A stretch of DNA of 64,000 bases from Acidobacteriota bacterium (GCA_017883185.1 JADGOB010000006.1:2283-66282), one strand, 5' to 3'. Counted from the first letter of the stretch, positions 1 to 45,734 are shown. Numbers and translations are program-made. Notes: a model not told the origin generated them from the sequence alone.

Positions 1-1668
1 GACCGCGCCGGCCTCGACGAACGGGCTGAGGTTGTTCGGAAGTTCGACGACGAGTGCGGGCACGTCCAGCGGCATCGCCTCGATGGCGGCCGTCGAGTTG
101 ACGGTCACGAGCGCGCTCGACGCGGCCACGAGCCGCGCCAGATCCGCCGAGGCGGGCGCGATCGTCACGTTGGTCGCGCCACTGGCCGCCCGTTCGTACG
201 GAGCCGCGGTTTCGGCAGGATGGCACTTCACCACCAACCGCACGTCCGGCATTCCCGCGACCGCTTCGATCAACGCCTCGAAGGCCCCGGCCATCTGCGA
301 GTACTTCGTGGCCACGACCACCAGATGCTGGTCCGTCCTGGCACCGACCGACGCCCGCAACGCCGCACGCGCGTCGTCGTCCATGTGGCGCGCCGATTCG
401 ACGAAGGCATCGAGCTTTGGGCTGCCGGCCACGGCGATCGCTTCGTCCGGAAAACGGCCCGCGTCGATCAGGTGACGCGCGGCGAACTGATCGTAGACGA
501 GCGTCAGGTCTGGCCGTGGAAAACCGAGGTCGGCCGGGTTGCGCGGGGAGGGCTGCATCTCGTCCGCCTCGTGCAGGTAGTTCAGCCAGTGCCGGTAAAT
601 GAAGCCGTGCTGCAGCCCGGCGACCGGGATCCCGCGGCGTCGGGCCTCGAGAACGAGCGCGCGCCCGGAACCGCCCGCCTCGGCGTAGGTGATGGCCACG
701 CGAGGTTTCAGCGCGTCGAGCGCTGCGCCGATCTCGTCCATCGTTCGCGCGGACCAGGGAAACTGCAGGTGCGAGATGCCGGTGAACTCGTTGCGCATGA
801 GCGGCCACGCGTCACACCCGCGGAACACGCAGGCGGTGCGGAGGGCGTCGCTGCCGACCAACGCCTGCCTGGTCGCGTTCCGCCCGGCCCAGACGGCGGT
901 GGACGGCGCGAGCGCGCGCCCCGAGGCGTAGCTGCCGACCGGAGCGAACGGGAGCGTGTCGGCCGTCTGGTGCACGATCTCCGCCAGCCGTTGTTTCCAG
1001 GTGCGAGAGCGGAAGTTCGTTTTCGGGCCAAGGCCGACCAGCGTCAGTTGGTGGTCGCCAACTCGCTTCGACACCTCGCGCAGCACCGGGCCGATGTACG
1101 ACTCGTCGCCGGTCGCCTGGCGCCAGAATGCGGAGTGCACGAAGGCCACGACCGTGACCGCGCCCCGTGTTCCTGGAGATCGTCGGCCAGGCCTGTATCG
1201 CTCCGCGACCGCGCTCGCCGTGTACAGCAGGCCGCGCCAGAGAGGCTCCGCGCGCTGGCGCCATGGAACGCGGGCGGGCGCCGGAGAGCCGCGCCAGGAG
1301 AGATGTCGCCCTTCGGCGAACTGGCGCGCGAGGTGGGTCAGCAGGACGTCTCCCTCCGCCACGCCCAGCGCGAGCGGTCGTTCGCGGGCGAGCAACGTCT
1401 CGAGGGCGTACAGCGTCCGGAGGATGGCGACGACCACGCGGCGCTTGTGGAGGTACAGCTCGGCAAACCACCAGAGGGAATCGCCGCGGAACAAGAACCG
1501 ATCGCGCAACGGGACGCCGTCCACCGGCAGGCCGCGAAGCGATTTGATCCAGGCGTTCGCGTCACTCTCCGCGCGCTCGGCCGCCTCGGCATCCAGGTAG
1601 GTGGTCAGCGATACGCGGCGCTCACCGTCGCCGGTATTCACGATGAGGATCTGTTTCTGGTCAGCCAT
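1..1668 (-). CDS. putative GT-B-type glycosyltransferase / capsule-synthesis-like protein; C-terminus runs off the window start
   Basis: Absent from the ORF track because its stop lies beyond position 1. Manual reverse translation from the ATG (1668-1666) gives an open 556-codon frame (MADQKQILIVNTGDGERRVSL...RLVVKCHPAE...LVTVNSTAAIEAMPLDVPALVV). The KxHP ... NST..IEA pattern resembles Capsule_synth (KpsC/KpsS-like) proteins. The start overlaps the GT9 stop by 31 nt. Confidence 0.55.
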   Translation of the reverse strand, partial: MADQKQILIVNTGDGERRVSLTTYLDAEAAERAESDANAWIKSLRGLPVDGVPLRDRFLFRGDSLWWFAELYLHKRRVVVAILRTLYALETLLARERPLALGVAEGDVLLTHLARQFAEGRHLSWRGSPAPARVPWRQRAEPLWRGLLYTASAVAERYRPGRRSPGTRGAVTVVAFVHSAFWRQATGDESYIGPVLREVSKRVGDHQLTLVGLGPKTNFRSRTWKQRLAEIVHQTADTLPFAPVGSYASGRALAPSTAVWAGRNATRQALVGSDALRTACVFRGCDAWPLMRNEFTGISHLQFPWSARTMDEIGAALDALKPRVAITYAEAGGSGRALVLEARRRGIPVAGLQHGFIYRHWLNYLHEADEMQPSPRNPADLGFPRPDLTLVYDQFAARHLIDAGRFPDEAIAVAGSPKLDAFVESARHMDDDARAALRASVGARTDQHLVVVATKYSQMAGAFEALIEAVAGMPDVRLVVKCHPAETAAPYERAASGATNVTIAPASADLARLVAASSALVTVNSTAAIEAMPLDVPALVVELPNNLSPFVEAGAV

Positions 1669-2864
1669 GTGTCCCCACTCAAGACCTCGGAGGCTGCATC
1701 GTACACCGCGTCGGCGCCGATCGCCCCGAGGCAATCGGGGACGTGACCGCGGCACCGCTGGGGTGGCCGACGAATCCGGTTGCACGGGCTGCAGGGCAAC
1801 TGGACCCGGACGACGCGGGCCGACCCGGAGACCGGGCCCCACCGCGCGGGATCGGAAGGCCCGAAGACTGCGACAAGGGGAACGTCCAGGGCGGCCGCGA
1901 GGTGCATCGGCCCCGTGTCGCCCGTCAGCAGCAGGTCCGCCTCCTCGAGGACGGCGGCCAGGGTGGCCAGGTCCACCCGCCCGGCGAGGTCGAGACATTC
2001 GACCTCGCGTCGCAGGCCGGACTTCATCTGGTCCACCAGGGGACGATCCTCCGCGCTGCCAGATAGGACGATGGACGCGCCGTGCGACGCTGACAGGCGG
2101 TTGGCGACCTCGGCGAACCGCGCGAGGTTCCACTGCTTGATCTCGCGGCCGCCGCCGGCGTGCACCACGACCACCGGTGTGCCGCCCCGGCTCCGGGCTG
2201 CGAGCAGCGCTGCGGCGCGTTCGCGCGCCTCGTCCGGCATCCGCAGTCGCCTCGCACCGGGTTCCGGCCTGTGCGATTCGAGAGAGCCAGTCGGCAAGTC
2301 GAACGCGCGCTCGACCAGGCGCAGCGAGTTCGATCGCGTGTGAATCGCGGGATTGAAAGCCACCCGGTCGGTCAGCATCGGCCCGCCGCCCGCCATGTCG
2401 AAACCCACGCGGCGAGCCGCTCCCGACAGGCCGAGGAGCGCGTGGCTGCGAACGTCTCCCTCGAAGTTGATCGCCACGTCGTAGCGCCGGCCGCGCCAGC
2501 CCTTCGCACGCTTTACCATGTCTCCGAACGAGTGGCTGGCCGCTCCTCGCGCGAGCCAGGGGGCGTTCAGCGTCTCGATGCGGTCGAGACCGGGGATGAG
2601 CCGCGCGAGCTGTTCGTTCCAGCTCCCCACCACGAGGTCGATGGTCGCGTGCGGGGACCGGGCCCGGACGGCGCCGATGGCATCGAGCGTCATCAACAGG
2701 TCGCCCACCCGCTCGAACCGCAGCAGCAGGATGGCCGGGCGGTCGTCTCCCCCGCCGGCGCCAGGGGAGCGCCGCAGAAATGGTGCGGCCGCGGCAAGGC
2801 CGATATCCGCCAGCCCGACCAGCCACCGTTCACGCCAATCCGTGAGTTGCAGATGAGAAAACAC
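1638..2864 (-). CDS. glycosyltransferase family 9 (heptosyltransferase-like)
   Basis: ORF track, 408 aa, GTG start. GT9-type motifs: LLLRFERVGDLLMT near the N-terminus and GDTGPMHLAAALDVPLVAVFGPSDP near the C-terminus. Confidence 0.8.
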   Translation of the reverse strand: MFSHLQLTDWRERWLVGLADIGLAAAAPFLRRSPGAGGGDDRPAILLLRFERVGDLLMTLDAIGAVRARSPHATIDLVVGSWNEQLARLIPGLDRIETLNAPWLARGAASHSFGDMVKRAKGWRGRRYDVAINFEGDVRSHALLGLSGAARRVGFDMAGGGPMLTDRVAFNPAIHTRSNSLRLVERAFDLPTGSLESHRPEPGARRLRMPDEARERAAALLAARSRGGTPVVVVHAGGGREIKQWNLARFAEVANRLSASHGASIVLSGSAEDRPLVDQMKSGLRREVECLDLAGRVDLATLAAVLEEADLLLTGDTGPMHLAAALDVPLVAVFGPSDPARWGPVSGSARVVRVQLPCSPCNRIRRPPQRCRGHVPDCLGAIGADAVYDAASEVLSGDTWLTRNRSSS

Positions 2865-2872
2865 CCAACCGT

Positions 2873-2935
2873 CCCCTGACCCCTGACCCCTAACTCCTAA
2901 CCCCCGATCCCCGATCCCTGCCCCCTGATCCCTAT
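2873..2935. repeat. heptanucleotide tandem array, 9 in-phase units (CCCCTGA family)
   Basis: Direct read: cccctga cccctga cccctaa ctcctaa cccccga tccccga tccctgc cccctga tccctat. It fills the junction between the upstream gene's stop (2932-2934) and the GT9 start (2864). Confidence 0.95.
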
Positions 2936-5442
2936 TTCACCGCCACCCTCTGCACCATCACGCCGAGCGTGCGGTGGTCATCGACACCCAACACAGCCTT
3001 GGGCGACCACGGCGAGGACGCGATGCGGAGGAGCGCCGGCTCTTCCCGGGCGGCAGCGGCGGCCGCGATGTCCGCGGGGATGGCGAAGGAATAGGGCTTG
3101 AACCCGCTATCGACGGTGGCTTCACCGATGAGGCGGTTGTCCAGATAGCACGTGATCGTGGCGGGACCTGCCGAAGCCGGCCGTCCGCCGTTGTCCATCC
3201 AGATCGCCAGGCTCGACGCGCGGTCGGTCAGGCCCAGGATCGTCACGTACGACGAATCGGTCGTCCAGCGAAACGAGCGACCGTTCATCCACTCCTTGGC
3301 GTTGAACCGAACGACGTACAGGTCGTCGTTCGTGCCGACGTCGATGTCGAACGGACGTGTCTCGCTCGCGGGATCGACGAACTTGTAGATGCTGAAGTCG
3401 AATTCCTTCTGGCGAGGGCCGCGTGGATAGCCGTCCCACACCGCCTCGTACTCGGGCACCTGGAACCGCTCGGTGGCCACGGGCACGACCGCGATCGCGC
3501 GCGACAGGAGGTCGGTGCCGCCGCTGCCGACGAAGTAGACGTTCTGGTAGCGGCTGCGGGCCCAGTCGAGGAACCCGCGGAACCGCTGGCGGTCGGGCCT
3601 GGGCGTGCTCAGCACGAGGACGTTGCGATTGAAGATGTAGGCCAGCGGCAAGGCGACGACGTGCAGATCGGACGACCGTCGAGATTCGACCACGACCAGG
3701 TCGCGCGGGCCGAAGTGATTCGAGAGAGCCTCGACGCGCGACCACAGCCCCTGGTACTCGACATGCCGAAAGACCGGCTGGTCCGCCCGGATGAGCAGCG
3801 CGCCGACGATCGTCACGAACACGAGCGGCGGAACCCACGCTGCCACGCGAGCCAGCGTCCCGCCCTTCGGTGTCGGCGTCTCGCCGGTCCCGTCCGTTTT
3901 CCGTGACCACACGCCGTAGAACGCGCCTGCAGCCAGCAGCAGGAACGCCGACGGCAGGATCACCGGCACGAATCGACGGGTCATCCAAAAGTGCTCGGGC
4001 ACGATCTGAATCTTGTAGAAGACGAAGAAGCCGTACACCACCGTGACGAGCAGCAGCGCCGGGTCGCGCCAGAACCGCCTCCAGGCTAGCAGGACGAAGC
4101 CGGCGACGGCGGCGATCAGACCCGCCCACGGGAAGTACCACGTGAACGTCCGGAGCGACAGCGCATCGTGCGGCGCCAGCCGACCGGCAGGAACGCGGAA
4201 GAACCAGGCGTAGATGACGGCACCGACGACGACGACGCCGAGGGCCGGAGGCGACCACGTGGAGATCACCCGCTCGAGCCGCTGGTTGCGGGAGAGGAGC
4301 AGGAGCGCGACCGCGGCCAGCACGCCGATGCCGAGAAACGTCAGGTGGATCGGACGCAGGTTCTCGAAGAACACCGCGTAGCGCCCGAAGCCTGGCCGCA
4401 TGATCGTCGAGATATAGACGCCGACGGCGACCAACGCCGCCACCATCGGGATGACAAACCAGGCGCGCGGCCACCGGCGCCGGAACAGCAGGAACAGCAC
4501 CGCGAGGCCGACGCCCGCCCACGCCAGGACGGCGTCGAAACGCAGGAACACCAGCAGTCCGAGAACCACGCCGGCCACAGGCGCAAAGAACCGGTCGTCG
4601 TCCACGTGCGACCGCGCGAAGGCGAGCAATCCTGCGAACAACAGCGCCTGCAGTCCGATCTCCGAGTTTGGATACCGGCCGAACCAGAGTTCGACGACGC
4701 AGAGCGCCAAAAGTGCCGAGGCGCAGAACGCCGGGATCCGCCCGAGCAGGCGGGCGCCCGCAAAATAGACGCCGAGCAACCCGAAGATGGCCCACGCGCC
4801 GATCATGCGCAGGCCGCCGCTCAGACCATCGAGCCCGTAACCGATCGCGACCCACGCCGGGTAGAGGTGCGGGAACTGGGCGACCACCGTGCCCTTGAGC
4901 GGATCGACCAGGAAGAAACCCATGAAGCGGAGGCTGTAGTACCAGCGATCGTGATACGGCGGGAAGAACAGGTCGCGGTGGACGGGCTGAACGGCTGCGA
5001 CCAGCGAGTCGCGGATCACCAGTGAGCCGCGCTGCGCGAGCGCGATCCCCTCGTTGATGTAGACGCCGGGGTCCCTGCCGCCGATGACGAATTCGGCGAC
5101 CGGGAAGAACAGGGCCATGCCGAGCGCGACGAGCGCAACCGGGAAAAGAGCCGTGACCCCGGGCCGTTGCGCCGTTCCGCGGTAGAGCAGGTGGCCGCGC
5201 CAGGCAGCGAGGGCCGCAGCCGAAAGCAATCCGTTGGCGATCAGCAGTCGCGGGAAGGTATACCAGGAGGCCGCCGCCAGCGCGAGCACGACGATCGACG
5301 ACCAGGCGGCGCTGATGACGACCGCCCAGAAGACGCGCTCCTCGGCGGCCAGCTGTGCCCGGCGGTCGCGCTCGGCGACAGGTGCGCGGAACAGCAGCGC
5401 GCCCGGCACGAACGCGATCAGCAGAAGCTCAGGAAGCCACAT
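2932..5442 (-). CDS. GT-C fold membrane glycosyltransferase (ArnT / PMT_2-like) with a large C-terminal soluble domain
   Basis: ORF track 2932..5562, trimmed to ATG 5442 (MWLPELLLIAFVPGALLF...); the upstream extension is Arg-rich and overlaps the DegT gene. About 560 aa of multiple hydrophobic helices are followed by about 270 aa of soluble domain. It sits in an operon with polyprenyl-P GT2 and sugar-modifying enzymes. Confidence 0.7.
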   Translation of the reverse strand: MWLPELLLIAFVPGALLFRAPVAERDRRAQLAAEERVFWAVVISAAWSSIVVLALAAASWYTFPRLLIANGLLSAAALAAWRGHLLYRGTAQRPGVTALFPVALVALGMALFFPVAEFVIGGRDPGVYINEGIALAQRGSLVIRDSLVAAVQPVHRDLFFPPYHDRWYYSLRFMGFFLVDPLKGTVVAQFPHLYPAWVAIGYGLDGLSGGLRMIGAWAIFGLLGVYFAGARLLGRIPAFCASALLALCVVELWFGRYPNSEIGLQALLFAGLLAFARSHVDDDRFFAPVAGVVLGLLVFLRFDAVLAWAGVGLAVLFLLFRRRWPRAWFVIPMVAALVAVGVYISTIMRPGFGRYAVFFENLRPIHLTFLGIGVLAAVALLLLSRNQRLERVISTWSPPALGVVVVGAVIYAWFFRVPAGRLAPHDALSLRTFTWYFPWAGLIAAVAGFVLLAWRRFWRDPALLLVTVVYGFFVFYKIQIVPEHFWMTRRFVPVILPSAFLLLAAGAFYGVWSRKTDGTGETPTPKGGTLARVAAWVPPLVFVTIVGALLIRADQPVFRHVEYQGLWSRVEALSNHFGPRDLVVVESRRSSDLHVVALPLAYIFNRNVLVLSTPRPDRQRFRGFLDWARSRYQNVYFVGSGGTDLLSRAIAVVPVATERFQVPEYEAVWDGYPRGPRQKEFDFSIYKFVDPASETRPFDIDVGTNDDLYVVRFNAKEWMNGRSFRWTTDSSYVTILGLTDRASSLAIWMDNGGRPASAGPATITCYLDNRLIGEATVDSGFKPYSFAIPADIAAAAAAREEPALLRIASSPWSPKAVLGVDDHRTLGVMVQRVAVK

Positions 5443-16448: not shown

Positions 16449-17342
16449 GTGACCATGCCCGAGCACGTTCCGGTGATGAGAGCCGAGGTTCTGCACGCTC
16501 TCGATCCGCAGCGCGGCGGGCTCTTCGTGGATTGCACGCTCGGCCTTGGAGGCCACGCTGCGGCGGTGCTGGAGGCGGGGGCGACACGGCTGATCGGGAT
16601 CGACAGGGACCTCGAGGCGCTGTCGATTGCGCGCGAGCGCCTGGGGCGATGGGCCGATCGGGTGGAGTTCGTGCACGCGGATTACAAGGACCTCGGCGAG
16701 GTGCTCGACGCGCGCGGGGTGCAGTGCGCGGACGGCATCGTCGCCGATCTTGGCGTCTCCTCGCTGCAGTTCGACGGCGAGGGGCGCGGGTTCAGTTTCC
16801 AGAGGGACGAACCGCTCGACATGCGGATGGACCGGTCGGCCGGAATGACGGCCGCTGATCTGATCGCGGAGCTCGAGGAGCACGAACTCGCCGACCTGGT
16901 CTACGCGTTCGGCGAGGAGCGCTACTCGCGGAGGATTGCGCGCGCGGTCGTGGAAGCACGCCGCGAGGGTCCGGTCGCCACGACGGGGCAGCTCGCGGCC
17001 ATCGTGCGTCGGGCGGTGCCACGGAAGGGCTACAGCCCGATTCACCCTGCGACGCGCACGTTCCAGGCGCTGCGAATCCGCGTGAACGGCGAGCTCGACG
17101 GGCTCGATCGATTCGTAGACCACGCGTGCCGGCGGCTGGCGCCGGGCGGGCGCCTGGTCGTGATCGCGTTTCACTCGCTCGAGGACCGGATCGTCAAGCA
17201 CACGCTGCGGCAGCTCGCGGCCGACGAGACGCGGTCACTCCGGCTGCTGGCCCGCAAGGCGGGCCAGCCCACCGACGAGGAAGTGGCCATCAACCCGAGG
17301 GCCCGGAGCGCAAAGCTCAGGGCCGTCGAGCGAGTGGCTTGA
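16449..17342 (+). CDS. rsmH: 16S rRNA (cytosine1402-N4)-methyltransferase RsmH
   Basis: ORF track, 297 aa. HVPVM...FVDCTLGLGGHA...SLEDRIVK motifs. Start is GTG 16449 or ATG 16455. Confidence 0.92.
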   Translation: MTMPEHVPVMRAEVLHALDPQRGGLFVDCTLGLGGHAAAVLEAGATRLIGIDRDLEALSIARERLGRWADRVEFVHADYKDLGEVLDARGVQCADGIVADLGVSSLQFDGEGRGFSFQRDEPLDMRMDRSAGMTAADLIAELEEHELADLVYAFGEERYSRRIARAVVEARREGPVATTGQLAAIVRRAVPRKGYSPIHPATRTFQALRIRVNGELDGLDRFVDHACRRLAPGGRLVVIAFHSLEDRIVKHTLRQLAADETRSLRLLARKAGQPTDEEVAINPRARSAKLRAVERVA

Positions 17343-17370
17343 GACACGTTTTACGGGAGAGGACCGCGAC

Positions 17371-17772
17371 ATGCAGGGCAGGGTCAACACCCCCACCGCC
17401 TTCGAGGTGAGCCCGGCGCTACCCCGCCAGCAGGTCAACCTCGAGGTGGACCAGGCGCGACAGCGCGAGTTTCGGCGCTGGCTGCTGGTCGGGCTCGTGA
17501 TCATTGTGGCCGCGCTGTTCGACGGGACGCAGCGATATGTCCCGTCCTCGCTCGGGTACCAGCTGGAGCAAGTGCAGCAACAACACGCCCAGGAGGACGC
17601 GATCGCCCGCGCGCTGCGGCTCGATATTGCGATGCTGCGGGCGCTGCCACGCATTGAGGGGCTAGCCACGAACCTTCTGCACATGACTGCTCCCGGGCGC
17701 GGCAATACCATCGTGATCGAGCGAGTTGTTCCGCCCGAGCAACCACCCTCGTCAGTCGTCGCGGCGCGATAG
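17371..17772 (+). CDS. ftsL: cell division protein FtsL-like (single-pass membrane, coiled coil)
   Basis: ORF track, 133 aa. One TM helix (WLLVGLVIIVAALF) followed by a heptad-like region. Canonical position between rsmH and ftsI. Confidence 0.7.
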   Translation: MQGRVNTPTAFEVSPALPRQQVNLEVDQARQREFRRWLLVGLVIIVAALFDGTQRYVPSSLGYQLEQVQQQHAQEDAIARALRLDIAMLRALPRIEGLATNLLHMTAPGRGNTIVIERVVPPEQPPSSVVAAR

Positions 17773-17780
17773 GAGCGATC

Positions 17781-19808
17781 ATGGCTGAGCAACCCGATCC
17801 ACGCAACTGGCGGCTTACCGTGGGCCCCCGCCTGGTCGTGGTCGTCGTCGTGTTCGCGGTCTGTCTGCTTGCCGTGTTCGTCCGCCTTGTCAATCTCCAG
17901 ATCTACCAGCACGACGAACTCCAGGCGAGGAGCGAGCGCCAGCGGACGAGTCTGCTGGAGGAGCCCGCGCAGCGGGGCGACATCGTGGACCGTCACGGCA
18001 GGGTGCTCGCCTCCAGCGTCGAGGTCGACACGGTGGTCGCCGTGCCGAGCAAGCTAGTGAACAAGGAGCAGGTGGTCGCGAGTTTGTGCGACGCGCTCGG
18101 CGACTGCGACGACGCCGAGCGTGTGGCCATGACGAAGCGCCTCAGCCGGAAGAAGTCGTTCGCCAACGTGCGTCACCATGTGAAACCCGAGCAGGCGCGC
18201 CGGGTGGAAGCGCTCGGGATTGACGGCGTCTACTTCGTGAAGGAGCCGCGCCGCTACTATCCCAACCAGGAGCTGGCTGCGGCCGTGCTCGGCTACGTCG
18301 GGATCGAGAACAAGGGCCTGGCCGGGCTCGAGGACACCTACGACTCGAAGCTCCGCGGACGTCCGGGCCTCATGCGGCTGCAACACGACGGCCGCAAGAC
18401 CGGTCGAAAGTCCTTCAGTCGCGTCGGCGATCCGCCCGTGCCCGGGGCCACCATCGAGCTCACGATCGACGCGAACCTGCAGTACATCGCCGAACGGGAA
18501 CTGCGGGCGGGCGTCGAGGAGAACCGGGCGATCGGCGGCAGCGTGGTCATGATGGATTCGACGACCGGCGAGATCTTCGCCCTCGCGAGCGAGCCGTCGT
18601 TCAACGCGAACGACTACGGGCACGTGCCCGCCGAGCATCGGCGCAATCGCGCTGTCCAGGACATCTACGAGCCGGGATCAACCTTCAAGCTCGTCACGGC
18701 ATCGGCCGCGCTCGAAGAGAAGGTGATGAGCCCGACCGACCTGGTCGAGACCGGCGGCGGGTCGATCGCGATTGGGTCCAGGATCATCAAAGAAGCACAG
18801 GGGCACGCGTACGGGACGCTCTCGTTCACCGACGTGATCGTCAAATCGAGCAACGTCGGTGCGATCAAGATCGGGTTCCGCCTTGGGGCGGAACGCCTCG
18901 GTCGCTACGTCGAACGCTTCGGGTTCGGCACGCGCCTGTCGCCCGACTTCCCGGGGGAGAACGCCGGCATCGTGTGGCGGCCGTCGCAGTGGACCGACGG
19001 CGCGCTGGCTTCGGTCTCGATGGGCTACCAGATCGGCGTGACGCCGCTGCAGATGGCGGCCGCCGCGAGCGTCGTGGCCAACGGCGGCGAACTGGTGCAG
19101 CCGCGGGTGGTGCGAGCGGTGATCGACGGCAACCGGCGCGCGGTCGTCCCGCGCAAGGTGATTCGTCGGGTGACCTCGGCGGAAACCGCGGCGGAGCTGA
19201 CCTCCATCATGGAAGCCGTGGTCGATCGCGGGACCGGGAAGAATGGCAAGCTTCTGGACTTCACCGTCGCGGGCAAGACCGGCACCGCGAACAAGGTCCA
19301 GGATGGGCAATACCTGAAGAAGGACTTCAACGTGTCGTTCGTCGGCTTCGTCCCGTCGCGCAAGCCGGCGCTGACGATCCTCGTCCTCATCGACACCCCA
19401 CGCGGCCCGAACAGACCCTTCGGCGGCACCGTGGCGGCGCCGATCTTCCGGCGGATCGCCGACGCCGCGCTCCGTTACATGGCCGTCGCGCCGACCATCA
19501 ACCCGATGCCTCCCGTCCTCGTGGCGCGTCACGACAGCGGCAACGGAATCAAGGTGTCCGGTCCGGTCCTGCCGTTGACGATCATCCCGGCCGTCAGCCC
19601 GTCGTCGACCGGACAGATCGTGCTGCCGGAGTTGCGGGGGCTGAGCGGGCGCGAGGCGCTCCGGGTGCTGGCCCGGCTGGGTATCACGCCGCGCGTGACG
19701 GGCGACGGCGTGGTGACTGAACAGGATCCGCTGCCTGGCGCGGCGCTCGAGGCCGGCGGGTCGTGCCGCCTGGCGCTCGGCCGCCACGCCCCGGGGCTGC
19801 GTCCATGA
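17781..19808 (+). CDS. ftsI: peptidoglycan D,D-transpeptidase FtsI (class B PBP) with a C-terminal PASTA domain
   Basis: ORF track, 675 aa. SxxK (GSTFK), SxN (KSSNVG) and KTG (GKTGTA) motifs. C-terminal LPELRGLSGREALRVLARLGITPRVTGDGVV is PASTA-like. Confidence 0.92.
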   Translation: MAEQPDPRNWRLTVGPRLVVVVVVFAVCLLAVFVRLVNLQIYQHDELQARSERQRTSLLEEPAQRGDIVDRHGRVLASSVEVDTVVAVPSKLVNKEQVVASLCDALGDCDDAERVAMTKRLSRKKSFANVRHHVKPEQARRVEALGIDGVYFVKEPRRYYPNQELAAAVLGYVGIENKGLAGLEDTYDSKLRGRPGLMRLQHDGRKTGRKSFSRVGDPPVPGATIELTIDANLQYIAERELRAGVEENRAIGGSVVMMDSTTGEIFALASEPSFNANDYGHVPAEHRRNRAVQDIYEPGSTFKLVTASAALEEKVMSPTDLVETGGGSIAIGSRIIKEAQGHAYGTLSFTDVIVKSSNVGAIKIGFRLGAERLGRYVERFGFGTRLSPDFPGENAGIVWRPSQWTDGALASVSMGYQIGVTPLQMAAAASVVANGGELVQPRVVRAVIDGNRRAVVPRKVIRRVTSAETAAELTSIMEAVVDRGTGKNGKLLDFTVAGKTGTANKVQDGQYLKKDFNVSFVGFVPSRKPALTILVLIDTPRGPNRPFGGTVAAPIFRRIADAALRYMAVAPTINPMPPVLVARHDSGNGIKVSGPVLPLTIIPAVSPSSTGQIVLPELRGLSGREALRVLARLGITPRVTGDGVVTEQDPLPGAALEAGGSCRLALGRHAPGLRP

Positions 19809-21355
19809 CACTTGCCGACCTGCTGGCGGCACTCGGCGACCTCGCGCCTGACGCGCGCTCGACGCTCGACGCGTCGCTGGCCGAGCGGGTCGTCAAGGCG
19901 GTGGCCTACGACTCGCGCAAGACGGGCCAGGGTTCCCTCTTCGTGGCGCTCAAGGGACAGAAAGCGGACGGCAGCGCGTTCGCGGTGCAGGCGCTCTCGA
20001 AAGGCGCGCTGGCGGTCGTCGCCGAGTCGGAGCGCCCGCGCGACGTGCAGGCGCCGTGGGTCGTCGTGCCCGACGCGCGCCTCGCCATGGCGCGGCTCGC
20101 GGCGGCGTTCTACCGTCATCCTTCCCGCGAACTGAAAGTCGTGGGCATCACCGGCACCAACGGCAAGACCACGACGGCGTACCTGGTCACCGCGCTGTTC
20201 GAGGCCGCGGCCATTCGGTGCGGCATGCTCGGCACTGTCGTCTACCGGATCGGCCTCGAGGACCGCGAGGCGACCCGAACGACGCCGGAGTCGGTGGACG
20301 TGCAGCACATGCTGCGCGAGATGGTGACCCGCGAGTGCGGCGCGTGCGCGATGGAGGTGTCTTCTCACGCGCTTTCGCAGCGGCGCGTGGACGGGACGCG
20401 GTTTGCCGTCGGCGTCTTCACGAACCTGACGCGCGACCACCTCGACTTCCACGGCGACATGGAGTCGTACTTCGCGGCCAAGCGACGCCTGTTCGAGATG
20501 ATGGGCCCTGACGGCGTGGCCGTGCTCAACGTGGACGATCCCCGCGGCTCGACGTTGGGCGGCCTCGCCGGACGGACGCTCACCTACGCCGTCGACCGGC
20601 CGGCTGACATCTCCCCCTCGAAGCTGACGCACTCGATCAGGGGCTTCACCTTCCAGGCCGTGACGCCGGTTGGATCGATCCAGGTGTGCTCGTCGCTGGT
20701 TGGCCGCCCGAACGTGTACAACGTGCTTGCGTCGATCGGCGCGGCGCTGGCGTGCGGTCTCCAGGCTGACGCGATCGAGCGTGGCCTGGCCGGGCTCGAA
20801 GGCGTGCCGGGCCGCTTTCAGGTGGTGTCCGAACCGGGCGACGACATCACCGTCGTCGTCGACTATGCGCACACCGACGACGCGCTGAAGAACCTGCTCG
20901 AAACGGCGCGGCCCCTGGCCACCCAGCGGCTGATTACCGTGTTCGGCGCCGGCGGGGAGCGCGACCGGACCAAGCGCCCGCTGATGGGCGCCGTGGCGGC
21001 GAGGCTCAGCGACCTCGTGATCATCACGTCGGACAACCCGAGAGGCGAGGACCCGACGGAGATCATCGAGGAGATCAAGCGGGGGGTCGCCATGCCGGCC
21101 GAGCGCACGCGAGCGTCAGAGACGCGCGAAGGCCAGCCGAAGTACACGCCGCCGAAGGCCACGGCGCACATGGCGATCGTGGATCGCAAGCTGGCGATCG
21201 AGCGGGCGATCAGCCTCGCGCGTCCCGATGATGTCGTGCTGATCGCCGGGAAGGGCCACGAGAAGTACCAGGTGATCGGCGACCGGGAGATTCCGTTCGA
21301 CGATGTCGCCGTATCGAGGCAGGCGCTGGAGCGAAGGCGCGCGGGTCGTGGGTAG
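19805..21355 (+). CDS. murE: UDP-N-acetylmuramoyl-L-alanyl-D-glutamate--2,6-diaminopimelate ligase MurE
   Basis: Track ORF 19763..21355, trimmed to ATG 19805 (ATGA overlap with the ftsI stop). GITGTNGKTTTAYL P-loop; DNPR motif (SDNPRGEDP). Confidence 0.92.
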   Translation: MTLADLLAALGDLAPDARSTLDASLAERVVKAVAYDSRKTGQGSLFVALKGQKADGSAFAVQALSKGALAVVAESERPRDVQAPWVVVPDARLAMARLAAAFYRHPSRELKVVGITGTNGKTTTAYLVTALFEAAAIRCGMLGTVVYRIGLEDREATRTTPESVDVQHMLREMVTRECGACAMEVSSHALSQRRVDGTRFAVGVFTNLTRDHLDFHGDMESYFAAKRRLFEMMGPDGVAVLNVDDPRGSTLGGLAGRTLTYAVDRPADISPSKLTHSIRGFTFQAVTPVGSIQVCSSLVGRPNVYNVLASIGAALACGLQADAIERGLAGLEGVPGRFQVVSEPGDDITVVVDYAHTDDALKNLLETARPLATQRLITVFGAGGERDRTKRPLMGAVAARLSDLVIITSDNPRGEDPTEIIEEIKRGVAMPAERTRASETREGQPKYTPPKATAHMAIVDRKLAIERAISLARPDDVVLIAGKGHEKYQVIGDREIPFDDVAVSRQALERRRAGRG

Positions 21356-21364
21356 CGAGCACCG

Positions 21365-22768
21365 ATGACGTTGACCGTTGCAGACATCGTCGAGGCCGTC
21401 GGCGGACGGCTCCTTTCCGGTGATGGGAAGGCGGTGGTCCCGGGGCTGTCGATCGACACGCGCACGCTCGAGGCGGGTGATCTCTACATCGCCATCCGCG
21501 GCGAGCGGTTCGACGGTCATGCGTTTGTGGAGGCTGCGCTCGCGGGCGGCGCGTGCGGTGCCGTCGTCAGCCAGCCGGTAGGGCACCTGCCGCCGGTGGT
21601 GGTTTCCGGGCGGGCCTTGATCGTCGTGCCCGACACCACGGGCGCCCTGCAGCGCCTGGCGCGCTGGGTGCGGCGTCAGTCGGGCGCACGCGTCGTGGTC
21701 ATCACGGGAAGTGTGGGCAAGACGACGACGAAGGACGTGACGGCGGCGTTTCTCGGGCTGCGGCATCGGGTGATGCGGTCGTCGGGCAACCTGAACAACC
21801 ACATTGGCCTGCCGCTGTCGCTGCTGGAACTGCGGCACGGGGCCGACGTCGCCGTGGTCGAGCTCGGGATGAACCACGCGGGCGAGATCAGCCGACTCGT
21901 GGCGATCGCCGACCCCGACGTGCGCGTCTGGACCAACGTCGCGGAGGTGCACATCGAGTTCTTCGCGTCGATCGACGCGATTGCCGACGCGAAGGCCGAG
22001 GTGCTCGAGGGGGCGACCGCGACAACGGTCCTCGTCGCGAACGCAGACGACCCTCGGGTGATGAGCCGCGCAGGAGGGTTCCCGGGGCGAGTGCTGACGT
22101 TCGGCACCGCGCCCGGGTCAACCGTCACGGCCTCGGAGGTCGAGGACCTGGGCATCGACGGGATGACTGCGCGGGTGAGCACCGGCGCCGGAAGCGTCCG
22201 CGTTCAGGTGCCGCTGCTCGGCCGGGGCAACCTGCAGAACGTCCTCGCGGCCGTCGCCGTCGCGCAAGAGTTCGGAGTGGGGCTCGCGGACATCGCCGGG
22301 CGAGCGACGACGCTCGGTCCGGCGTCGCATCGGGGCGACGTGATCCGGCTGGGTGGGGGCGTCACCGTTGTCGATGACGCGTACAACTCCAACCCGCGTG
22401 CGCTGCAGGGCGCGCTGGGAGTGATGGCCAGCGAGCGGAGATTCACCCGCCGCGTCGCCGTTCTGGGCGAGATGCTCGAACTGGGCGAACAGGCCGTTTT
22501 GCTGCACGAGGCGTGCGGCCGCACGGCGGCCGCGTCAGGCCTGTCACTGCTGCTGACGGTGGGCGGAGAGCCGGCGCGTGCGATGGGGCGGGCGGCCGTG
22601 CAGGCGGGAATGTCGGAAACGGCGGTCCGGCACGCCGGCTCGAGCGCCGAGGCCGCCGAGATCGCGGCGACCGCGGTCCACGCGGGCGATCTCGTGCTGG
22701 TCAAGGGTTCGCGCGGCATCAGGACCGAGCGCGTCGTCGAGCGATTGGCCACCGCGTTCCCGGTGTAG
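21365..22768 (+). CDS. murF: UDP-N-acetylmuramoyl-tripeptide--D-alanyl-D-alanine ligase MurF
   Basis: ORF track, 467 aa. ITGSVGKTTTKD P-loop; LELGMNHAGEI; DAYNSNP. Confidence 0.92.
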   Translation: MTLTVADIVEAVGGRLLSGDGKAVVPGLSIDTRTLEAGDLYIAIRGERFDGHAFVEAALAGGACGAVVSQPVGHLPPVVVSGRALIVVPDTTGALQRLARWVRRQSGARVVVITGSVGKTTTKDVTAAFLGLRHRVMRSSGNLNNHIGLPLSLLELRHGADVAVVELGMNHAGEISRLVAIADPDVRVWTNVAEVHIEFFASIDAIADAKAEVLEGATATTVLVANADDPRVMSRAGGFPGRVLTFGTAPGSTVTASEVEDLGIDGMTARVSTGAGSVRVQVPLLGRGNLQNVLAAVAVAQEFGVGLADIAGRATTLGPASHRGDVIRLGGGVTVVDDAYNSNPRALQGALGVMASERRFTRRVAVLGEMLELGEQAVLLHEACGRTAAASGLSLLLTVGGEPARAMGRAAVQAGMSETAVRHAGSSAEAAEIAATAVHAGDLVLVKGSRGIRTERVVERLATAFPV

Positions 22769-22782
22769 CGCCGGAAGGCGTC

Positions 22783-22824
22783 GGGGATCGGGGATCAGGG
22801 ATCGGGGATCAGGGATCAGGGATG
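22783..22824 (+). repeat. heptanucleotide tandem array, 6 units (GGGGATC/AGGGATC), ending in the murD ATG
   Basis: Direct read: ggggatc ggggatc agggatc ggggatc agggatc agggATG. It occupies almost the whole murF-murD spacer. Confidence 0.95.
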
Positions 22825-24204
22825 TCCGAGGTTCATGTGACCGGCAAGCGTGTCGTGGTCGTCGGGGCCGCCCGCAGCGGGATTGCCGCCGCCGAGCTGC
22901 TGGCGCGCCGTGGTGCACGCGTGATCCTCGCCGACCGGAAGCCGGAGTTGCCAGACGCCTCGAGACTGCGTGAACTCGGCGTCGAAACCGAGCTCGGTCC
23001 GCACAATCCGAAGACGTTCACGGCGGCAGACCTGATCGTGCTGAGCCCAGGGGTTCCGCTTCGGCAGCCGGTGCTGGTGCGCGCGAGGCGGGCCAGGGTC
23101 CCGATCATCGGCGAGGTGGAGCTGGCATCGCGGATGCTGCGGGGCCGGATCATCGCGATCACCGGCACGAAGGGAAAGTCGACGACGACGACGCTGGTTG
23201 GCCGGATGCTCACGGCCGCCGGGCTGAACGCCTCGGTGGCGGGCAACATCGGCGATCCGCTGGCGGCCAAGGTCGAGGCGTCCACGGACCAGACGATCCA
23301 CGTCGTCGAGGTGAGCAGCTTCCAGCTGGAATCGACCGAGACGTTCCACCCGTGGATCGCCGTGCTATTGAACTTCTCGGCCGATCACCTCGACCGGCAC
23401 GCGAACCTGCGCGAGTACGCCGCTGCCAAGGCGCGCGTCTTCGCCAACCAGGGCGAGTCGGACTGGGCCGTGATCAATGCAGACGATCCCCCGGCGATGC
23501 GGCTCGCCGCCCGGCGCGCGCACGCGCCGAAGCGGCTGTTCGCGCTGGATCGCGCGCTCACCGAGGGCACCGTGCTCGCCGACGGCTGGATCGTGTCGCG
23601 AGTGCCAGGGCAGGCCGACGTGCCCGTGCTGCCCGTGAGCGAGGTGCAGTTGATCGGGCGCCACCTCCTGTCCGACGTCGCGGCGGCCGCCACGGTCGCG
23701 ATGCTCGCGGGCGCGACGCCCGACGCGATCCGCCTCGCGGTTTCGGGCTTCGGCGGACTCGAGCACGCGCTCGAACGTGTGAAAGTGGTGGCGGGCATCC
23801 AGTTCGTCAACGACTCGAAGGCCACCAATGTCGAGTCCGCCCGGCGGGCGATCGAGAGCTTTGACGGACGGCTCGTGCCGATCATCGGCGGGCGTTTCAA
23901 GGGCGGGGATCTTCGCGACCTGCGGCCGGCGCTTGATGGGCGTTCGACGGCAGTCGTCGCGATCGGCGAAGCCCGCGCGGCGGTGCGTGAGGCGCTCGGG
24001 GACCTGGTGGCCGTGATCGAAGCGGGATCGATGGCGGAGGCGGTGCGCGCGGCGTTTGGCGCGGCGCCGCCCGGCGGGACGGTGGTGCTGGCGCCCGCGT
24101 GCGCCAGTTTCGATATGTTCCGTGACTACGCGGAACGGGGACGGATGTTCAAGCAGGAAGTCGAGAGGCTCGCGCAGGAATTCAACGGAACCCGTGAGCC
24201 GTGA
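22822..24204 (+). CDS. murD: UDP-N-acetylmuramoylalanine--D-glutamate ligase MurD
   Basis: Track ORF 22513..24204, trimmed to ATG 22822 (MSEVHVTGKRVVVVGAARSGIAAAELL...). GTKGKSTTT P-loop. The upstream extension overlaps murF and is Arg/Gly-rich. Confidence 0.92.
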   Translation: MSEVHVTGKRVVVVGAARSGIAAAELLARRGARVILADRKPELPDASRLRELGVETELGPHNPKTFTAADLIVLSPGVPLRQPVLVRARRARVPIIGEVELASRMLRGRIIAITGTKGKSTTTTLVGRMLTAAGLNASVAGNIGDPLAAKVEASTDQTIHVVEVSSFQLESTETFHPWIAVLLNFSADHLDRHANLREYAAAKARVFANQGESDWAVINADDPPAMRLAARRAHAPKRLFALDRALTEGTVLADGWIVSRVPGQADVPVLPVSEVQLIGRHLLSDVAAAATVAMLAGATPDAIRLAVSGFGGLEHALERVKVVAGIQFVNDSKATNVESARRAIESFDGRLVPIIGGRFKGGDLRDLRPALDGRSTAVVAIGEARAAVREALGDLVAVIEAGSMAEAVRAAFGAAPPGGTVVLAPACASFDMFRDYAERGRMFKQEVERLAQEFNGTREP

Positions 24205-24319
24205 GCAGTCGTCAGTCGGCACGCGCGATTGGGAGTTGACCGCTGGGAACGCAGGCTGCCCCGGTCTGCGAGGTCGGTGTCCCAATCCCGGCTGGCTGAT
24301 GACTGTTCACTGCTCACGG
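24194..24319. repeat. nested imperfect inverted repeat built from heptamer units (murD-ftsW spacer)
   Basis: Outer arms ccgtgagcagtCGTcagtc (24199-24217) and gactgTTCactgctcacgg (24301-24319): 16 of 19 positions complementary. Inner arms gattggga (24228-24235) and tcccaatc (24280-24287). The arms read as 7-mers gtgagcc gtgagca gtcgtca gtcggca and tgatgac tgttcac tgctcac. Confidence 0.85.
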
Positions 24320-24403
24320 TGTTCCGTCCTGCAGAGGTTATTTCGGGTCGACGTGCCGTAAAGTTTAGGCCCGGGCGCAGCAGGACGGCAAGGAAGGCGA
24401 ACG

Positions 24404-25504
24404 ATGGCGCGCAAGCTCAAATCCGACGCGGTGCTGTTCAGCACCACCCTGGTGCTGCTCGTCATCAGTATGGCCTGGGTCTACGGCGCGTCGGTCACGT
24501 TCGCGACGGAGATAAAGCACGACCCGAGCCACTTCGTGATCCGGCAGGGCATGTGGGTGGCGCTCGGGATGGTCGGGCTGATGGTCGCCATGAAGCTCGA
24601 CTACCGCCTGTTCCGCAATCGCACCTTGCTGCTATGGATAGCGGGAGCGACCGCCGTCGCACTCGTGGCGGTCCTGTTCAGTCGCCCGGTGAACAACTCG
24701 ACTCGATGGCTGGGATTAGGCGGCCTCGGCGTCCAGCCGGCCGAATTCGCCAAGTTGGTTGCCATCTTTTTCGTCGCCACCGTGCTCGAACGGAGGCTGG
24801 AGCAGCAGGAACCCCTGGAGCCCGGGCTGTTCCAGGCGGGCGTGCTGCTGACCGTCTTCGCGGGGTTGATCATGATTGAGCCCGACTTCGGCACCGGGCT
24901 CGTGCTGCTGGCGGCGGCGGGCACGATGATCTTCGTCGCGGGCCTCGCGTATCGATGGGTGCTGACTGCGGTTCTCGTGCTGCCGTGGCCGCTCATCGCG
25001 ATCATGCTGTACGAGCCGTACCGGCTGCGGCGGTGGCTCGCGTTCCTGAACCCTTATGATGACCCGCTTGACAGTGGCTACCAGACGCTCCAGTCGCTGA
25101 TCGCGGTCGGCACGGGCCACGTGTGGGGCAAAGGGTTCACGATGAGCGTGCAGAAGATGTTCTACCTGCCGGAGGCGCACAGTGACTACATCTTCGCGGT
25201 CATCGCCGAGGAGACGGGCCTGGTCGGCGCGACAGTGGTGCTTGCGTGCTTTGGCCTCATCGTGTGGCGCGGTCTGCGGGTGGCGCGGCGCGCGCCCGAC
25301 GCGTTCGGGTCGCTCCTTGCGGTCGGCATCACCGCCCTGATCGGCATCCAGGCCATGGTGAACCTGGGGGTCGTGGTCGGGATCCTGCCGTCGAAGGGGA
25401 TCCCGCTGCCGTTCGTGAGCGCCGGCGGCTCATCGATGATTGTCAGCCTGGTGGCGATGGGCGTGCTGTTGAATATCTCGCAACAGGCATCGGCGACGGA
25501 GTAA
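24404..25504 (+). CDS. ftsW: peptidoglycan glycosyltransferase / lipid II flippase-family protein FtsW (SEDS)
   Basis: ORF track, 366 aa polytopic membrane protein. SEDS motifs: PAEFAKL, LPEAHSDYIFAVI, LPSKGIPLPFVSAGGSS. Confidence 0.92.
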   Translation: MARKLKSDAVLFSTTLVLLVISMAWVYGASVTFATEIKHDPSHFVIRQGMWVALGMVGLMVAMKLDYRLFRNRTLLLWIAGATAVALVAVLFSRPVNNSTRWLGLGGLGVQPAEFAKLVAIFFVATVLERRLEQQEPLEPGLFQAGVLLTVFAGLIMIEPDFGTGLVLLAAAGTMIFVAGLAYRWVLTAVLVLPWPLIAIMLYEPYRLRRWLAFLNPYDDPLDSGYQTLQSLIAVGTGHVWGKGFTMSVQKMFYLPEAHSDYIFAVIAEETGLVGATVVLACFGLIVWRGLRVARRAPDAFGSLLAVGITALIGIQAMVNLGVVVGILPSKGIPLPFVSAGGSSMIVSLVAMGVLLNISQQASATE

Positions 25505-25507
25505 CGC

Positions 25508-33643: not shown

Positions 33644-34542
33644 TGCTCCGCCTCGAACCGCCGAGATCGCCGGGACGGCCGTCAACGAACGGATTTGTCT
33701 GGACGAGGGAGTCGTGGGGCACGGCGCTGCGGTGCGCGTCCCTGACGGAGGTGGCGGATCACTTCTTCACGACCCGTCAACTGCGGTTGCGGGGAGCGTC
33801 GGAACCGGACGACTGGGCGCATGTGGCCTCGACGATCGGGGTGACACCGGGTCGCCTGCTCCGCCTGACCCAGGTCCACGGCCACCGCGTGGTCGTGGCA
33901 CGCCGCCCGGAATCGGCAGGCCGCCCCGGATCGGCCAGCCTGCCTTTGCCGGAAAACGGGAGCACCTCCAGCAGGAGCGGGCACGACTGGCCCGAGGCCG
34001 ACATCCTGGTGTCGGACGACCCGGAAGTGGCCCTGGCCATCCAGGTGGCTGACTGCGTGCCGCTGCTCATGGCTGACCGTCGCTCTGGCGCGGTGGCGGC
34101 CGTCCACGCCGGCTGGCGGGGAACGGTGGCTGGTGCCGGGCCTGCCGCGGTCGATGCGCTGTCGCGGGAATTCGGCGCACGTCCCGAGGACCTCCTCGTG
34201 GCTCAGGGACCGAGCATCGGGCCCTGCTGCTACGAAGTGGGCGGCGACCTGCGCGGTGCCTTCGAAGAGAGCGAATTCAGGACGCACATCGACCGATGGT
34301 TCTCGCGCGGCGCGGACGGTCGTTTCCTGCTCGACCTGTGGACGGCCAACCGCGACCAACTGCTCGCGTCAGGCGTGCGCCCGGACGCCATTCACCAATC
34401 GGGTCTCTGCACCGCCAGCCACCCTGACTTGTTTGCATCGTATCGGCGGGACGGGCCGGGCACGGGTCGGATCGCGGCGGTGGTCCGAAGCCGGGGGCTC
34501 TCAGGTGAAAGTGAGAATCGAGGATTGAGAATCGAGGATTGA
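33643..34542 (+). CDS. pgeF: peptidoglycan editing factor PgeF / YfiH (Cu-oxidase_4, DUF152)
   Basis: Track ORF 33253..34542, trimmed to ATG 33643 (TGATG overlap with acpS). QVHG, ADCVPLL, HAGWRG and C..S motifs. The last codons are encoded by a heptamer array. Confidence 0.85.
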   Translation: MLRLEPPRSPGRPSTNGFVWTRESWGTALRCASLTEVADHFFTTRQLRLRGASEPDDWAHVASTIGVTPGRLLRLTQVHGHRVVVARRPESAGRPGSASLPLPENGSTSSRSGHDWPEADILVSDDPEVALAIQVADCVPLLMADRRSGAVAAVHAGWRGTVAGAGPAAVDALSREFGARPEDLLVAQGPSIGPCCYEVGGDLRGAFEESEFRTHIDRWFSRGADGRFLLDLWTANRDQLLASGVRPDAIHQSGLCTASHPDLFASYRRDGPGTGRIAAVVRSRGLSGESENRGLRIED

Positions 34543-34554
34543 AGATCGACGACC
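34513..34554. repeat. heptanucleotide array, 6 units (GAGAATC/GAGGATT)
   Basis: gagaatc gaggatt gagaatc gaggatt gaagatc gacgacc. It overlaps the pgeF stop (34540-34542). Confidence 0.95.
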
Positions 34555-34599
34555 GCTGCTGTCCAAGCCGGTCACCTGGAGGCGGCCGCGCGCTCGGCC

Positions 34600-37064: not shown

Positions 37065-38747
<1,683 letters not shown>

Positions 38748-45639: not shown

Positions 45640-45668
45640 TCGCCAGATGTCCCCCGTTCACCCTCCGG

Positions 45669-45717: not shown

Positions 45718-45734
45718 TATAATTCTGAGATCCG

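Follow-up and report, generated by a model that had tools for sequence, protein, structure and literature searches.

What does a run of nine G-rich heptamers do between two genes of a bacterial operon, and how did it come to be there? The question is raised by a 63-nucleotide (nt) stretch of spacer at positions 2873-2935, on the minus strand of a 64,000-nt piece of Acidobacteriota DNA; the whole of this piece, which has 68% GC and is 11% intergenic, is called the window here. The array separates the gene for an 836-amino-acid (aa) membrane protein from a gene for a family 9 glycosyltransferase (GT9). An original prediction, made from the window sequence, had proposed that the array forms G-quadruplexes (G4s), or acts as a series of Shine-Dalgarno (SD)-like elements, and in this way sets the translation ratio of the two cistrons. 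We compared the array with contigs from the same population and from relatives (numbered L001-L106), with the other repeats of the window and with published repeat systems. The array is probably a slippage-driven simple-sequence repeat (SSR) of the GGGNATC type that expanded from an SD spacer, with its start-proximal unit as the ribosome-binding site and its distal units tolerated. The host can be placed by its sequence among the uncultured Vicinamibacterales (Acidobacteriota subdivision 6), and its best MurD match is at 84%.

Sequence and position of the array

On the minus strand the stretch consists of nine 7-nt units that are G-rich in the sense direction. The sequence had been quoted correctly, and both direct inspection and Tandem Repeats Finder (period 7, 8.7 copies, 79% matches, score 59) agree with the nine heptamers, which hold eight tracts of three to five Gs. 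The loops between the tracts are 2-4 nt long, except for one loop of 10 nt that spans the GGAG unit, and not 3-4 nt throughout as had been stated. The lag-7 self-match score of the array is 26.5, and shuffled sequences yield about 0.05 arrays per window at a score of 13 or more. The array is thus far above chance, with its periodicity and its extreme G4Hunter score (see below) as the exceptional part.

The boundaries were also placed correctly: the array begins one base ahead of the TAG stop of the upstream gene, which it overlaps, and ends 8 nt ahead of the GTG start codon of the GT9 gene (2864-2862). Every unit is a near-copy of the start-proximal AGGGGA, and the likeness to SD sequences that had been pointed out is real, as each unit resembles the GGAG or GGGAG that stands 7-10 nt ahead of the start in other genes of the operon. 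Seven GGGA/AGGA motifs recur in the array at 7-nt spacing. An Rfam search of the array gave no family match, and no promoter or terminator consensus was found in its vicinity. From its place inside a co-directional cluster of 13 genes, with both flanking genes on the minus strand and no such consensus nearby, the array is presumably transcribed.

Copy-number alleles in near-identical sequences

Nine near-identical sequences, including the window, were compared at this junction. They come from different samples and assemblers (ENA MEGAHIT, JGI, Logan), encode the exact GT9 protein or a 99% variant of it, and have matching flanks that are 99.6-99.96% identical to the window. A scan of metagenomes with the upstream flank gave one further contig only. 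The array was found to be the only gap or indel in approximately 48 kb of aligned near-identical contigs, and it occurs in four alleles. Nine units, in a spacer of 67 nt, are present in the window, L004, L005 and L087, and 11 units, with TTAGGAGTTAGGGG duplicated and a spacer of 81 nt, in L001, L003 and L104. Two different alleles of eight units, both with a spacer of 60 nt, have lost one GGGGATC (L002) or one TCAGGGG (L006). The 9- and 11-unit alleles were each recovered in three or more independent assemblies.

The four alleles correspond to three independent whole-unit events (7 or 14 nt), each inside a locally perfect sub-block. Whole-unit changes in perfect sub-blocks are the signature of slipped-strand mispairing in replication. 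No allele differs in the start-proximal unit or in the 8 nt that link it to the start codon, and both reading frames are untouched. With a spacing of 60-81 nt across the alleles, the description of the two genes as coupled was not upheld.

The upstream gene and the GT9 gene share a reading frame when the array has 8 or 11 units (L002 and L001 junctions). In L002 only the TAG stands between them, and a read-through product would contain GSGGRDRGLGVRGQGSGDGW, a Gly-rich linker; the arrangement is probably a coincidence.

The same junction in relatives

The spacer is flanked in all relatives by the same upstream C-terminus (TLGVMVQRVxV, then the stop) and by the GT9 N-terminus, and its content differs widely. 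In L090-92, where the GT9 protein is 77% and the DNA 82% identical, the junction reads TGA GGATCAGGGGCCGGGGATCGGGGGTTGGCTGA GTG, with four units in 32 nt and three tracts of at least three Gs (G3+); 23 of 25 positions are identical to the 5' part of the array in the window. The junction of L089 consists of the TAG and a plain SD spacer of 10 nt, AGGGGGCGAC, with one G3+ tract, and that of L093 of approximately 62 nt with another G-rich repeat, annotated by the gene caller as coding sequence. In L088, whose GT9 protein is 88% identical, a 503-aa PMT_2-like gene is inserted, the stop of which overlaps the GT9 start (ATGA), and there is no G3+ tract. Compared with the window at 1638-5442, the L088 junction has the look of a boundary at which the polysaccharide cluster has recombined.

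At the orthologous junction, relatives preserve neither the array nor a G4 motif of four tracts. Because the relatives carry 10 nt, four units, another repeat or an ATGA overlap, the array is best described as a lineage-specific expansion of a short G-rich spacer. The proposal that it sets the translation ratio of the two cistrons therefore found no comparative support: the array is absent in relatives, its unit number drifts, and the same type of repeat stands at murD.

Some further differences were seen in these contigs. The upstream gene of L088 (1-5233) encodes an 834-aa protein that is only 50% identical to the 836-aa protein of the window. The GT9 N-terminus LFSHLQL starts with CTG in L089 (~4830-4850) and in L093 (~5001-5075). 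L089 lacks a canonical in-frame start ahead of LFSHLQL, and its public gene call runs the upstream gene into the GT9 N-terminus.

Other heptamer arrays in the window and in related genomes

The window holds five arrays at period 7 and four at period 14, all of them intergenic, and none at periods 4-6 or 9-12. Their units differ from locus to locus, the antisense unit at 2873-2935 being CCCCTGA. The same was seen in 1.43 Mb from 80 related genomes, in which period 7 was the commonest short period (31 arrays, with 27 at period 14 and 1-13 at the others) and the heptamer units differed at almost every locus. Intergenic heptamer arrays are numerous in this genome and its relatives, the array being one among them, and period 7 is the favoured short period. 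The array had been presented as a singular feature of one junction, but it belongs to a repeat class with dispersed copies.

The closest counterpart in the window is a sister array in the murF-murD spacer. It starts 12 nt past the murF stop, and its last unit, AGGGATG, supplies the ATG of murD (22822-22824). The exact-protein match for MurD was obtained with this start (460 aa), and a start at GTG 22837 was dropped after the same look-up gave no match. The sister array has six units in nine contigs (spacer 53 nt) and four in L106 (39 nt). Of the related species, some have arrays at the murD junctions and others do not, the closest being among the latter. There are two RGGGATC arrays in the 64 kb, and the 1.43 Mb of relatives hold nine further arrays with at least four G tracts at a 7-nt period, a density that is compatible with the published genome-wide density (about 90-190 loci).

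The array at lepA showed no variation in unit number in ten contigs, so not all heptamer arrays are equally unstable. The lepA spacer itself (45640-45734 in the window) is dimorphic with identical LepA, being approximately 204 nt in L097, L098 and L100 and 95 nt in L094-96, L099, L101 and L102. The extra 109 nt of the long form contain (TTCAGAA)4, which is reverse-complementary to the (TTCTGAM)5 array downstream, and a terminator-like hairpin, GAGCCAGGAGGC...GCCTCCTGGCTC, followed by TTTCGTTT. A TATAAT sequence lies just past the lepA array. The window also has an inverted heptamer pair (34512-34623), and similar structures of an array plus an inverted array are present in relatives (L019 2200-2319, L063 11325-11436).

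Across the consensus units of the period-7 arrays in the window and in L007-L093, CTGA/TCAG was the most enriched four-mer, found in 10 of 36 units as against approximately 2.2 expected from within-unit shuffles. As the top of 136 four-mers tested, with mixed orientation to transcription, this enrichment is suggestive only. The CTGA core links the antisense unit CCCCTGA at 2873-2935 with CTTCTGA at lepA, TAACTGA of Beggiatoaceae and MTYCTGA of Geobacter. Many heptamer units also contain TAG, TGA or TAA, and the provision of stop codons in all frames was considered as a reason for period 7 and not adopted.

Two possible rules for the class were tried and abandoned. An excess of G over C in the sense direction was considered as a sign of selection at the RNA level, e.g. 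for avoiding C-rich Rho-loading sites, and was seen in 24 of 29 arrays between co-directional genes as against 214 of 302 (71%) ordinary co-directional spacers; it was dropped as evidence because the arrays do not clearly exceed this background in the direction of the skew, but only in its size. A placement close to the upstream stop (median 14.5 nt, and 69.5 nt to the downstream start) is a trend only, as the arrays split 16:12.

G-quadruplex potential and RNA folding

The array contains two non-overlapping canonical G4 motifs, in line with the predicted repetition of the motif, and the start-proximal one, GGGGTCAGGGGTCAGGGGACGGTTGGG, covers the SD and the G of the GTG. The G4Hunter check that had been suggested was run, and the best 25-nt window of the array (2.48; array mean 1.92) was the highest of the 64 kb (99.9th percentile 1.72). 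By this score the array has the strongest predicted G4 potential in the window, and it has it on the presumed mRNA strand. The canonical motif per se is not unusual: the window has six, about as many as its 68% GC would yield by chance (4.4 +/- 2.1 after dinucleotide shuffling).

Folding of the array alone gave a minimum free energy of -8.5 kcal/mol (z = -0.76) and its 171-nt context a z of +0.75, and neither showed a competing Watson-Crick hairpin or a complementary C-rich arm. At least one G4 motif is retained by every allele in the population of the window, and L006 has lost one tract of the proximal motif.

Comparison with known repeat systems

The array fits a class of heptamers reported in 2015 by Rehm, Wurmthaler, Li, Frickey and Hartig (PLoS One), with GGGAATC in Xanthomonas and GGGGA(C/T)T in Nostoc/Anabaena PCC 7120 (PMC4692102). 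Its members are tandem arrays of two or more units and 14 bp or more, in which each heptamer has a G3-4 tract and a loop of 3-4 nt with ATC in it (consensus GGGNATC, GGGANTN or GGGGAYT). These GGGNATC-type repeats are 89-93% intergenic, mostly flanked by aligned open reading frames (ORFs), close to the upstream one, on the coding strand and separated from the stop codon by 0-50 bp or overlapping it; they also occur inside operons, e.g. Anabaena pecE-pecF (PMC4692102). The array likewise stands between co-directional ORFs, overlaps the TAG stop and is G-rich on the coding strand. The published repeats have 2-26 units, differ in length between close relatives, include some inverted pairs and are transcribed (PMC4692102), and the array has 8, 9 or 11 units in near-identical contigs and four at 82% identity. 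Eight of its nine units have G3-5 tracts, with AGGGATC twice, GGGGATC once, GGGGTCA twice and variants of these; GGGGATC fits GGGNATC exactly, but only some of the units match letter for letter. Judged by its type of unit, its placement and its variation in length, the array belongs to it and extends a known class to the Acidobacteriota, for which no report of GGGNATC-type repeats was found in the searchable literature.

There are also differences. The consensus in the window is RGGGATC/GGGGTCA and not GGGAATC or GGGGAYT, and the phylum is another one. In Xanthomonas one unit dominates approximately 186 loci, whereas the G-rich type of the window is one of several unrelated heptamers in 64 kb. 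The published repeats form K+-dependent G4s in vitro with melting temperatures from 50 C to above 95 C, among them the near-identical DNA oligonucleotides (GGGGATT)4 and (GGGGACT)4 (PMC4692102). This circular dichroism work concerned GGGAATC, GGGGATT and GGGGACT units; the G4 capacity of the units in the window is predicted from sequence. Rehm et al. identified no gene-regulatory role for the repeats and judged phase variation unlikely, since housekeeping genes dominate among the loci (PMC4692102).

Heptanucleotides are the commonest class of 5-11-nt SSRs in prokaryotes, which has been ascribed to a slippage-favouring polymerase footprint, and period 7 is favoured for the intergenic SSRs of large, high-GC genomes of non-pathogens, with slippage as their proposed origin (Mrazek and co-workers, as summarised in PMC4679880 and PMC4692102). 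The window and the 80 relatives show the same excess of period 7. This excess is a statistical class and not a functional family, and it is therefore silent on function at this junction.

Short intergenic heptamer arrays are also known as TAACTGA direct repeats in marine Beggiatoaceae, cyanobacteria and Bacteroidetes (MacGregor 2015, PMC4679880) and from Geobacter metallireducens, with four copies of GGGACCG at 49 loci and inverted pairs of five MTYCTGA (PMC2700814). Both are often directly upstream of start codons, and translational or global regulation has been proposed for them, not shown (PMC4679880, PMC2700814). The arrays of the window are of the same kind: CCCCTGA, the antisense unit at 2873-2935, has the likeness noted above, the lepA unit CTTCTGA fits MTYCTGA, and the inverted-pair layout at lepA matches too. 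The TAACTGA and Geobacter families differ in having one dominant unit per genome, with 2-6 copies per set.

In the 5' untranslated region (5'-UTR) of Haemophilus influenzae hmw1A and hmw2A, (ATCTTTC)n repeats act as a switch: the adhesin level is inverse to repeat number (hmw1A), and RNase III processes a long hairpin in which the repeat is paired with a G-rich arm (PMC12721329). Like the hmw repeat, the array is a heptanucleotide SSR that is presumably transcribed, lies upstream of a gene for a surface structure and varies in unit number in natural populations. It differs in having no complementary arm or stable fold and in being intercistronic, whereas the hmw repeat lies in a promoter-proximal 5'-UTR. 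Contingency SSRs in general share the whole-unit gains and losses in natural populations, but the heptamer arrays are not restricted to surface or host-interaction genes, being found also at murD, lepA and other housekeeping genes. A conserved cis-regulatory RNA (riboswitch, leader or RNA G-quadruplex (rG4) switch) would be expected at orthologous positions, where the array is not conserved, and there was no Rfam match.

Origin of the array and alternative explanations

We consider it probable, as stated at the outset, that slippage expanded a short G-rich spacer carrying the GT9 SD into the array in this lineage. The start-proximal AGGGGA, 7 nt before the GTG, would act as the ribosome-binding site, and the upstream units would be a tolerated by-product and not a conserved dedicated regulatory device. 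Their toleration would be explained by their place in non-coding RNA, by the lack of a hairpin and by an initiation region that they do not disturb. The upstream units may uncouple translation of GT9 from that of the upstream cistron, which in relatives is separated from it by an overlap or 10 nt, and they could in principle fold as a G-quadruplex or serve as extra SD-like or decoy sites. Since the SD-proximal unit and the linker are invariant across the alleles, we would expect at most a modest effect on expression, and the effect of unit number is probably small and graded.

Several points weigh against this explanation. An array of at least four units has been kept ever since this lineage parted from the species at 82% nucleotide identity, a long persistence if the repeat were purely neutral, and a surface-polysaccharide operon is the classic setting for contingency repeats. 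G-rich arrays with unrelated units recur just upstream of murD in several species, and this could reflect selection for some property of such junctions. The 8-unit alleles each come from a single short-read assembly and could be assembly errors. The neutrality of the array is something that we infer and not a demonstration.

A regulatory G-quadruplex, in the RNA or in the non-template DNA strand, would sequester the SD and the initial G of the GTG in the start-proximal G4 and so throttle GT9 relative to the upstream gene. The score of the array, its two motifs, the position of the proximal one across the SD and the GTG, the lack of a competing fold and the retention of a motif in all alleles of the population suit such a regulator, as do the very stable K+-dependent G4s of near-identical DNA units; artificial rG4s that mask the ribosome-binding site lower expression in Escherichia coli, and natural rG4s inhibit translation of PE/PPE mRNAs in Mycobacterium tuberculosis. 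We nevertheless regard it as unlikely, since the G3+ tracts at the orthologous junction fall to three in L090, one in L089 and none in L088, G4 motifs are about as frequent in the window as chance predicts, L006 has lost a tract of the proximal motif, and RNA G4s are reportedly depleted in bacteria in general, as Guo and Bartel are said to have found in 2016. The heptamers TTCTGAC, GCCGTCA and TGAGAAT are not G-rich, and G4 capacity is for this reason not the common denominator of the class, in which Rehm et al. saw no gene-regulatory role (PMC4692102). Slippage might instead be the point of the array, as a contingency locus or tuning knob that alters expression of GT9 and downstream genes and gives a heritable, reversible heterogeneity of surface polysaccharide, e.g. 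against phages or predators. The presence of four alleles among strains that differ by at most 0.4% elsewhere, in a glycosyltransferase-rich surface-polysaccharide operon, agrees with this idea, for which the hmw1A heptamers (PMC12721329) and the AGAT repeat in the 5'-UTR of Moraxella catarrhalis uspA2, which has an optimum copy number (as summarised in PMC4679880), are precedents. Yet the unit changes spare the SD-proximal unit, the linker and both reading frames, the same type of repeat, equally variable, adjoins the essential gene murD, and at a spacing of 60-81 nt translational coupling would already be lost in every allele. The hmw mechanism moreover requires a long hairpin cut by RNase III, a structure that the array does not have, and the dominance of housekeeping genes led Rehm et al. 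to doubt phase variation for the class (PMC4692102). A tuning knob at this junction is in our view improbable.

CsrA recognises GGA motifs that overlap SD sequences, and with its seven GGGA/AGGA motifs at 7-nt spacing the array might be a multivalent platform on the mRNA for a CsrA-like regulator, or for a cold-shock-domain protein on each heptamer, that controls translation or stability. The CspB protein of Bacillus subtilis occupies heptamer repeats at a ratio of one molecule to each heptamer (review in PMC4679880), but it prefers T-rich heptamers. No protein that binds the array was identified, and no search for one was made. Units that are wholly different between loci and species are a poor fit for a sequence-specific partner, the array is not kept at orthologous junctions, and such a platform is very unlikely. 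Two further ideas may be named: that the 8-11 units tune translation of GT9 and downstream genes by an RNA G4 or as SD decoys, or that the heptamer arrays of Vicinamibacterales, with a CTGA/TCAG core shared with Beggiatoaceae and Geobacter and in some cases arranged as an inverted pair plus hairpin, are the product or target of a sequence-specific process that crosses phyla and not of generic polymerase slippage. We hold this pair of ideas to be unlikely; if the former were true, an uncultured soil acidobacterium would have a heritable, reversible dial on its surface glycan. An assembly artefact or chance low-complexity sequence comes to mind with a metagenomic source, as tandem repeats are prone to mis-assembly. 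However, the array was found in nine sequences from different samples and assemblers with identical flanks, and shuffles give approximately 0.05 comparable arrays per window; this possibility is negligible. The perfect sub-blocks of the array are shorter than the k-mers of the assemblers used.

The expansion from an SD spacer that we favour involves no new mechanism. G4-capable heptamers are abundant in some bacteria, and their function has been open since the cyanobacterial STRR repeats were described, of which STRR1 is CCCCAGT. The class is now found in the Acidobacteriota, which are among the most abundant and least cultured soil phyla, and at this defined intercistronic junction, where the predicted ribosome-binding unit does not vary, alleles of 8, 9 and 11 units, together with the four units of a sister species, form a natural series. 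The arrays are also a warning for annotation, as gene callers misplace boundaries at them: the repeat of L093 was taken for coding sequence, and in L089 the upstream gene was fused into the GT9 N-terminus.

Flanking genes and other features of the window

The features with their coordinates are listed in Table 1.

Table 1. Positions of the array, its flanking genes and the other heptamer arrays, counted from the first letter of the window.
Feature	Position	Strand	Remarks
Heptanucleotide simple-sequence repeat	2873..2935	-	ATAGGGA TCAGGGG GCAGGGA TCGGGGA TCGGGGG TTAGGAG TTAGGGG TCAGGGG TCAGGGG; copy-number variable (8, 9 or 11 units)
Probable SD of the GT9 gene, AGGGGA (last G tract of the array plus one base)	2872..2877	-	7 nt before GTG; invariant in all alleles; predicted function
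Non-repeat 8-nt linker ACGGTTGG, array to start codon	2865..2872	-	Invariant in all alleles
GT9-family glycosyltransferase gene, 408 aa, GTG start	1638..2864	-	PF01075, E=5e-40; start backed by conserved N-terminus
Upstream gene, 836-aa polytopic membrane protein, no assigned family	2932..5442	-	Public gene call; ~12 hydrophobic segments
TAG stop of the upstream gene, within the first repeat unit	2932..2934	-	C-terminus ending in TLGVMVQRVAVK before the stop, conserved in orthologues
Sister array GGGGATC GGGGATC AGGGATC GGGGATC AGGGATC AGGGATG	22781..22823	+	murF-murD spacer
Inverted heptamer pair, (TGAGAATCGAGGAT)x2.7 and (CCATTCT)x3.7	34512-34552 and 34598-34623		~45 nt apart
lepA array, TTCTGAC	45670-45707		
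GCCGTCA array	58724-58748		
AAGGCGG array	62699-62759		

The locus is, by its predicted gene content, a glycosyltransferase-rich surface-polysaccharide operon. The family of the downstream gene had been named correctly, and its protein remained under every NCBIfam equivalog cutoff for heptosyltransferases I, II and III. The peptide (V/L)FSHLQLxDWRERWLVGLAD is conserved from the GTG codon onward in homologues of 73-88% identity. Because the conserved N-terminus begins there, and the next in-frame start cuts into the conserved ILLLRFERVGD strand and motif, the GTG is taken as the true start. A start at 2708, given by a gene caller based on GC at third codon positions (GC3), was rejected, since it would delete the conserved N-terminus.

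The assignment of the upstream gene to the GT-C glycosyltransferases could not be confirmed. The 836-aa protein has no Pfam family and no PDB relative, and its sole NCBIfam match, to a putative glycosyltransferase family, scored 22.8 bits with a cutoff of 200; the hydrophobic segments are compatible with a membrane enzyme. By the public gene calls, the junctions of the cluster measure -1, 3, -4, 46, 31, -4, -4 and -14 nt, followed by the array junction and then by -31, 42, 40 and 173 nt. The statement that all junctions but one are at most 4 nt was therefore wrong.

Elsewhere in the window, an exact-protein look-up for the 349-aa gene at 61485-62534 gave no match. The dcw cluster (16566-26923) comprises mraW, a small ORF, ftsI, murE, murF, murD, ftsW and a Mur ligase. 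There is no mraY in the interval from murF to murD, and ftsW is not followed by murG; in more distant Vicinamibacterales a MraY-like C-terminus (LKLR, then the stop) lies directly upstream of murD. A group II intron at 55943-57412 has an ORF for a reverse transcriptase/maturase (RVT_1 and GIIM, 55943-57286, plus strand) and an Rfam Intron_gpII match to domains V/VI at 57339-57412 (55.6 bits). A tandem repeat of 20 nt in 9.3 copies (ACCGMCCCGTCCYCGTCAGC on the plus strand) occupies 36875-37062, starting 2-3 nt past the stop of a sigma-70 (rpoD-like) gene (37065-38747, minus strand). This repeat is G-rich on the sense strand of the sigma-70 gene, abuts its stop and holds the CTGA core.

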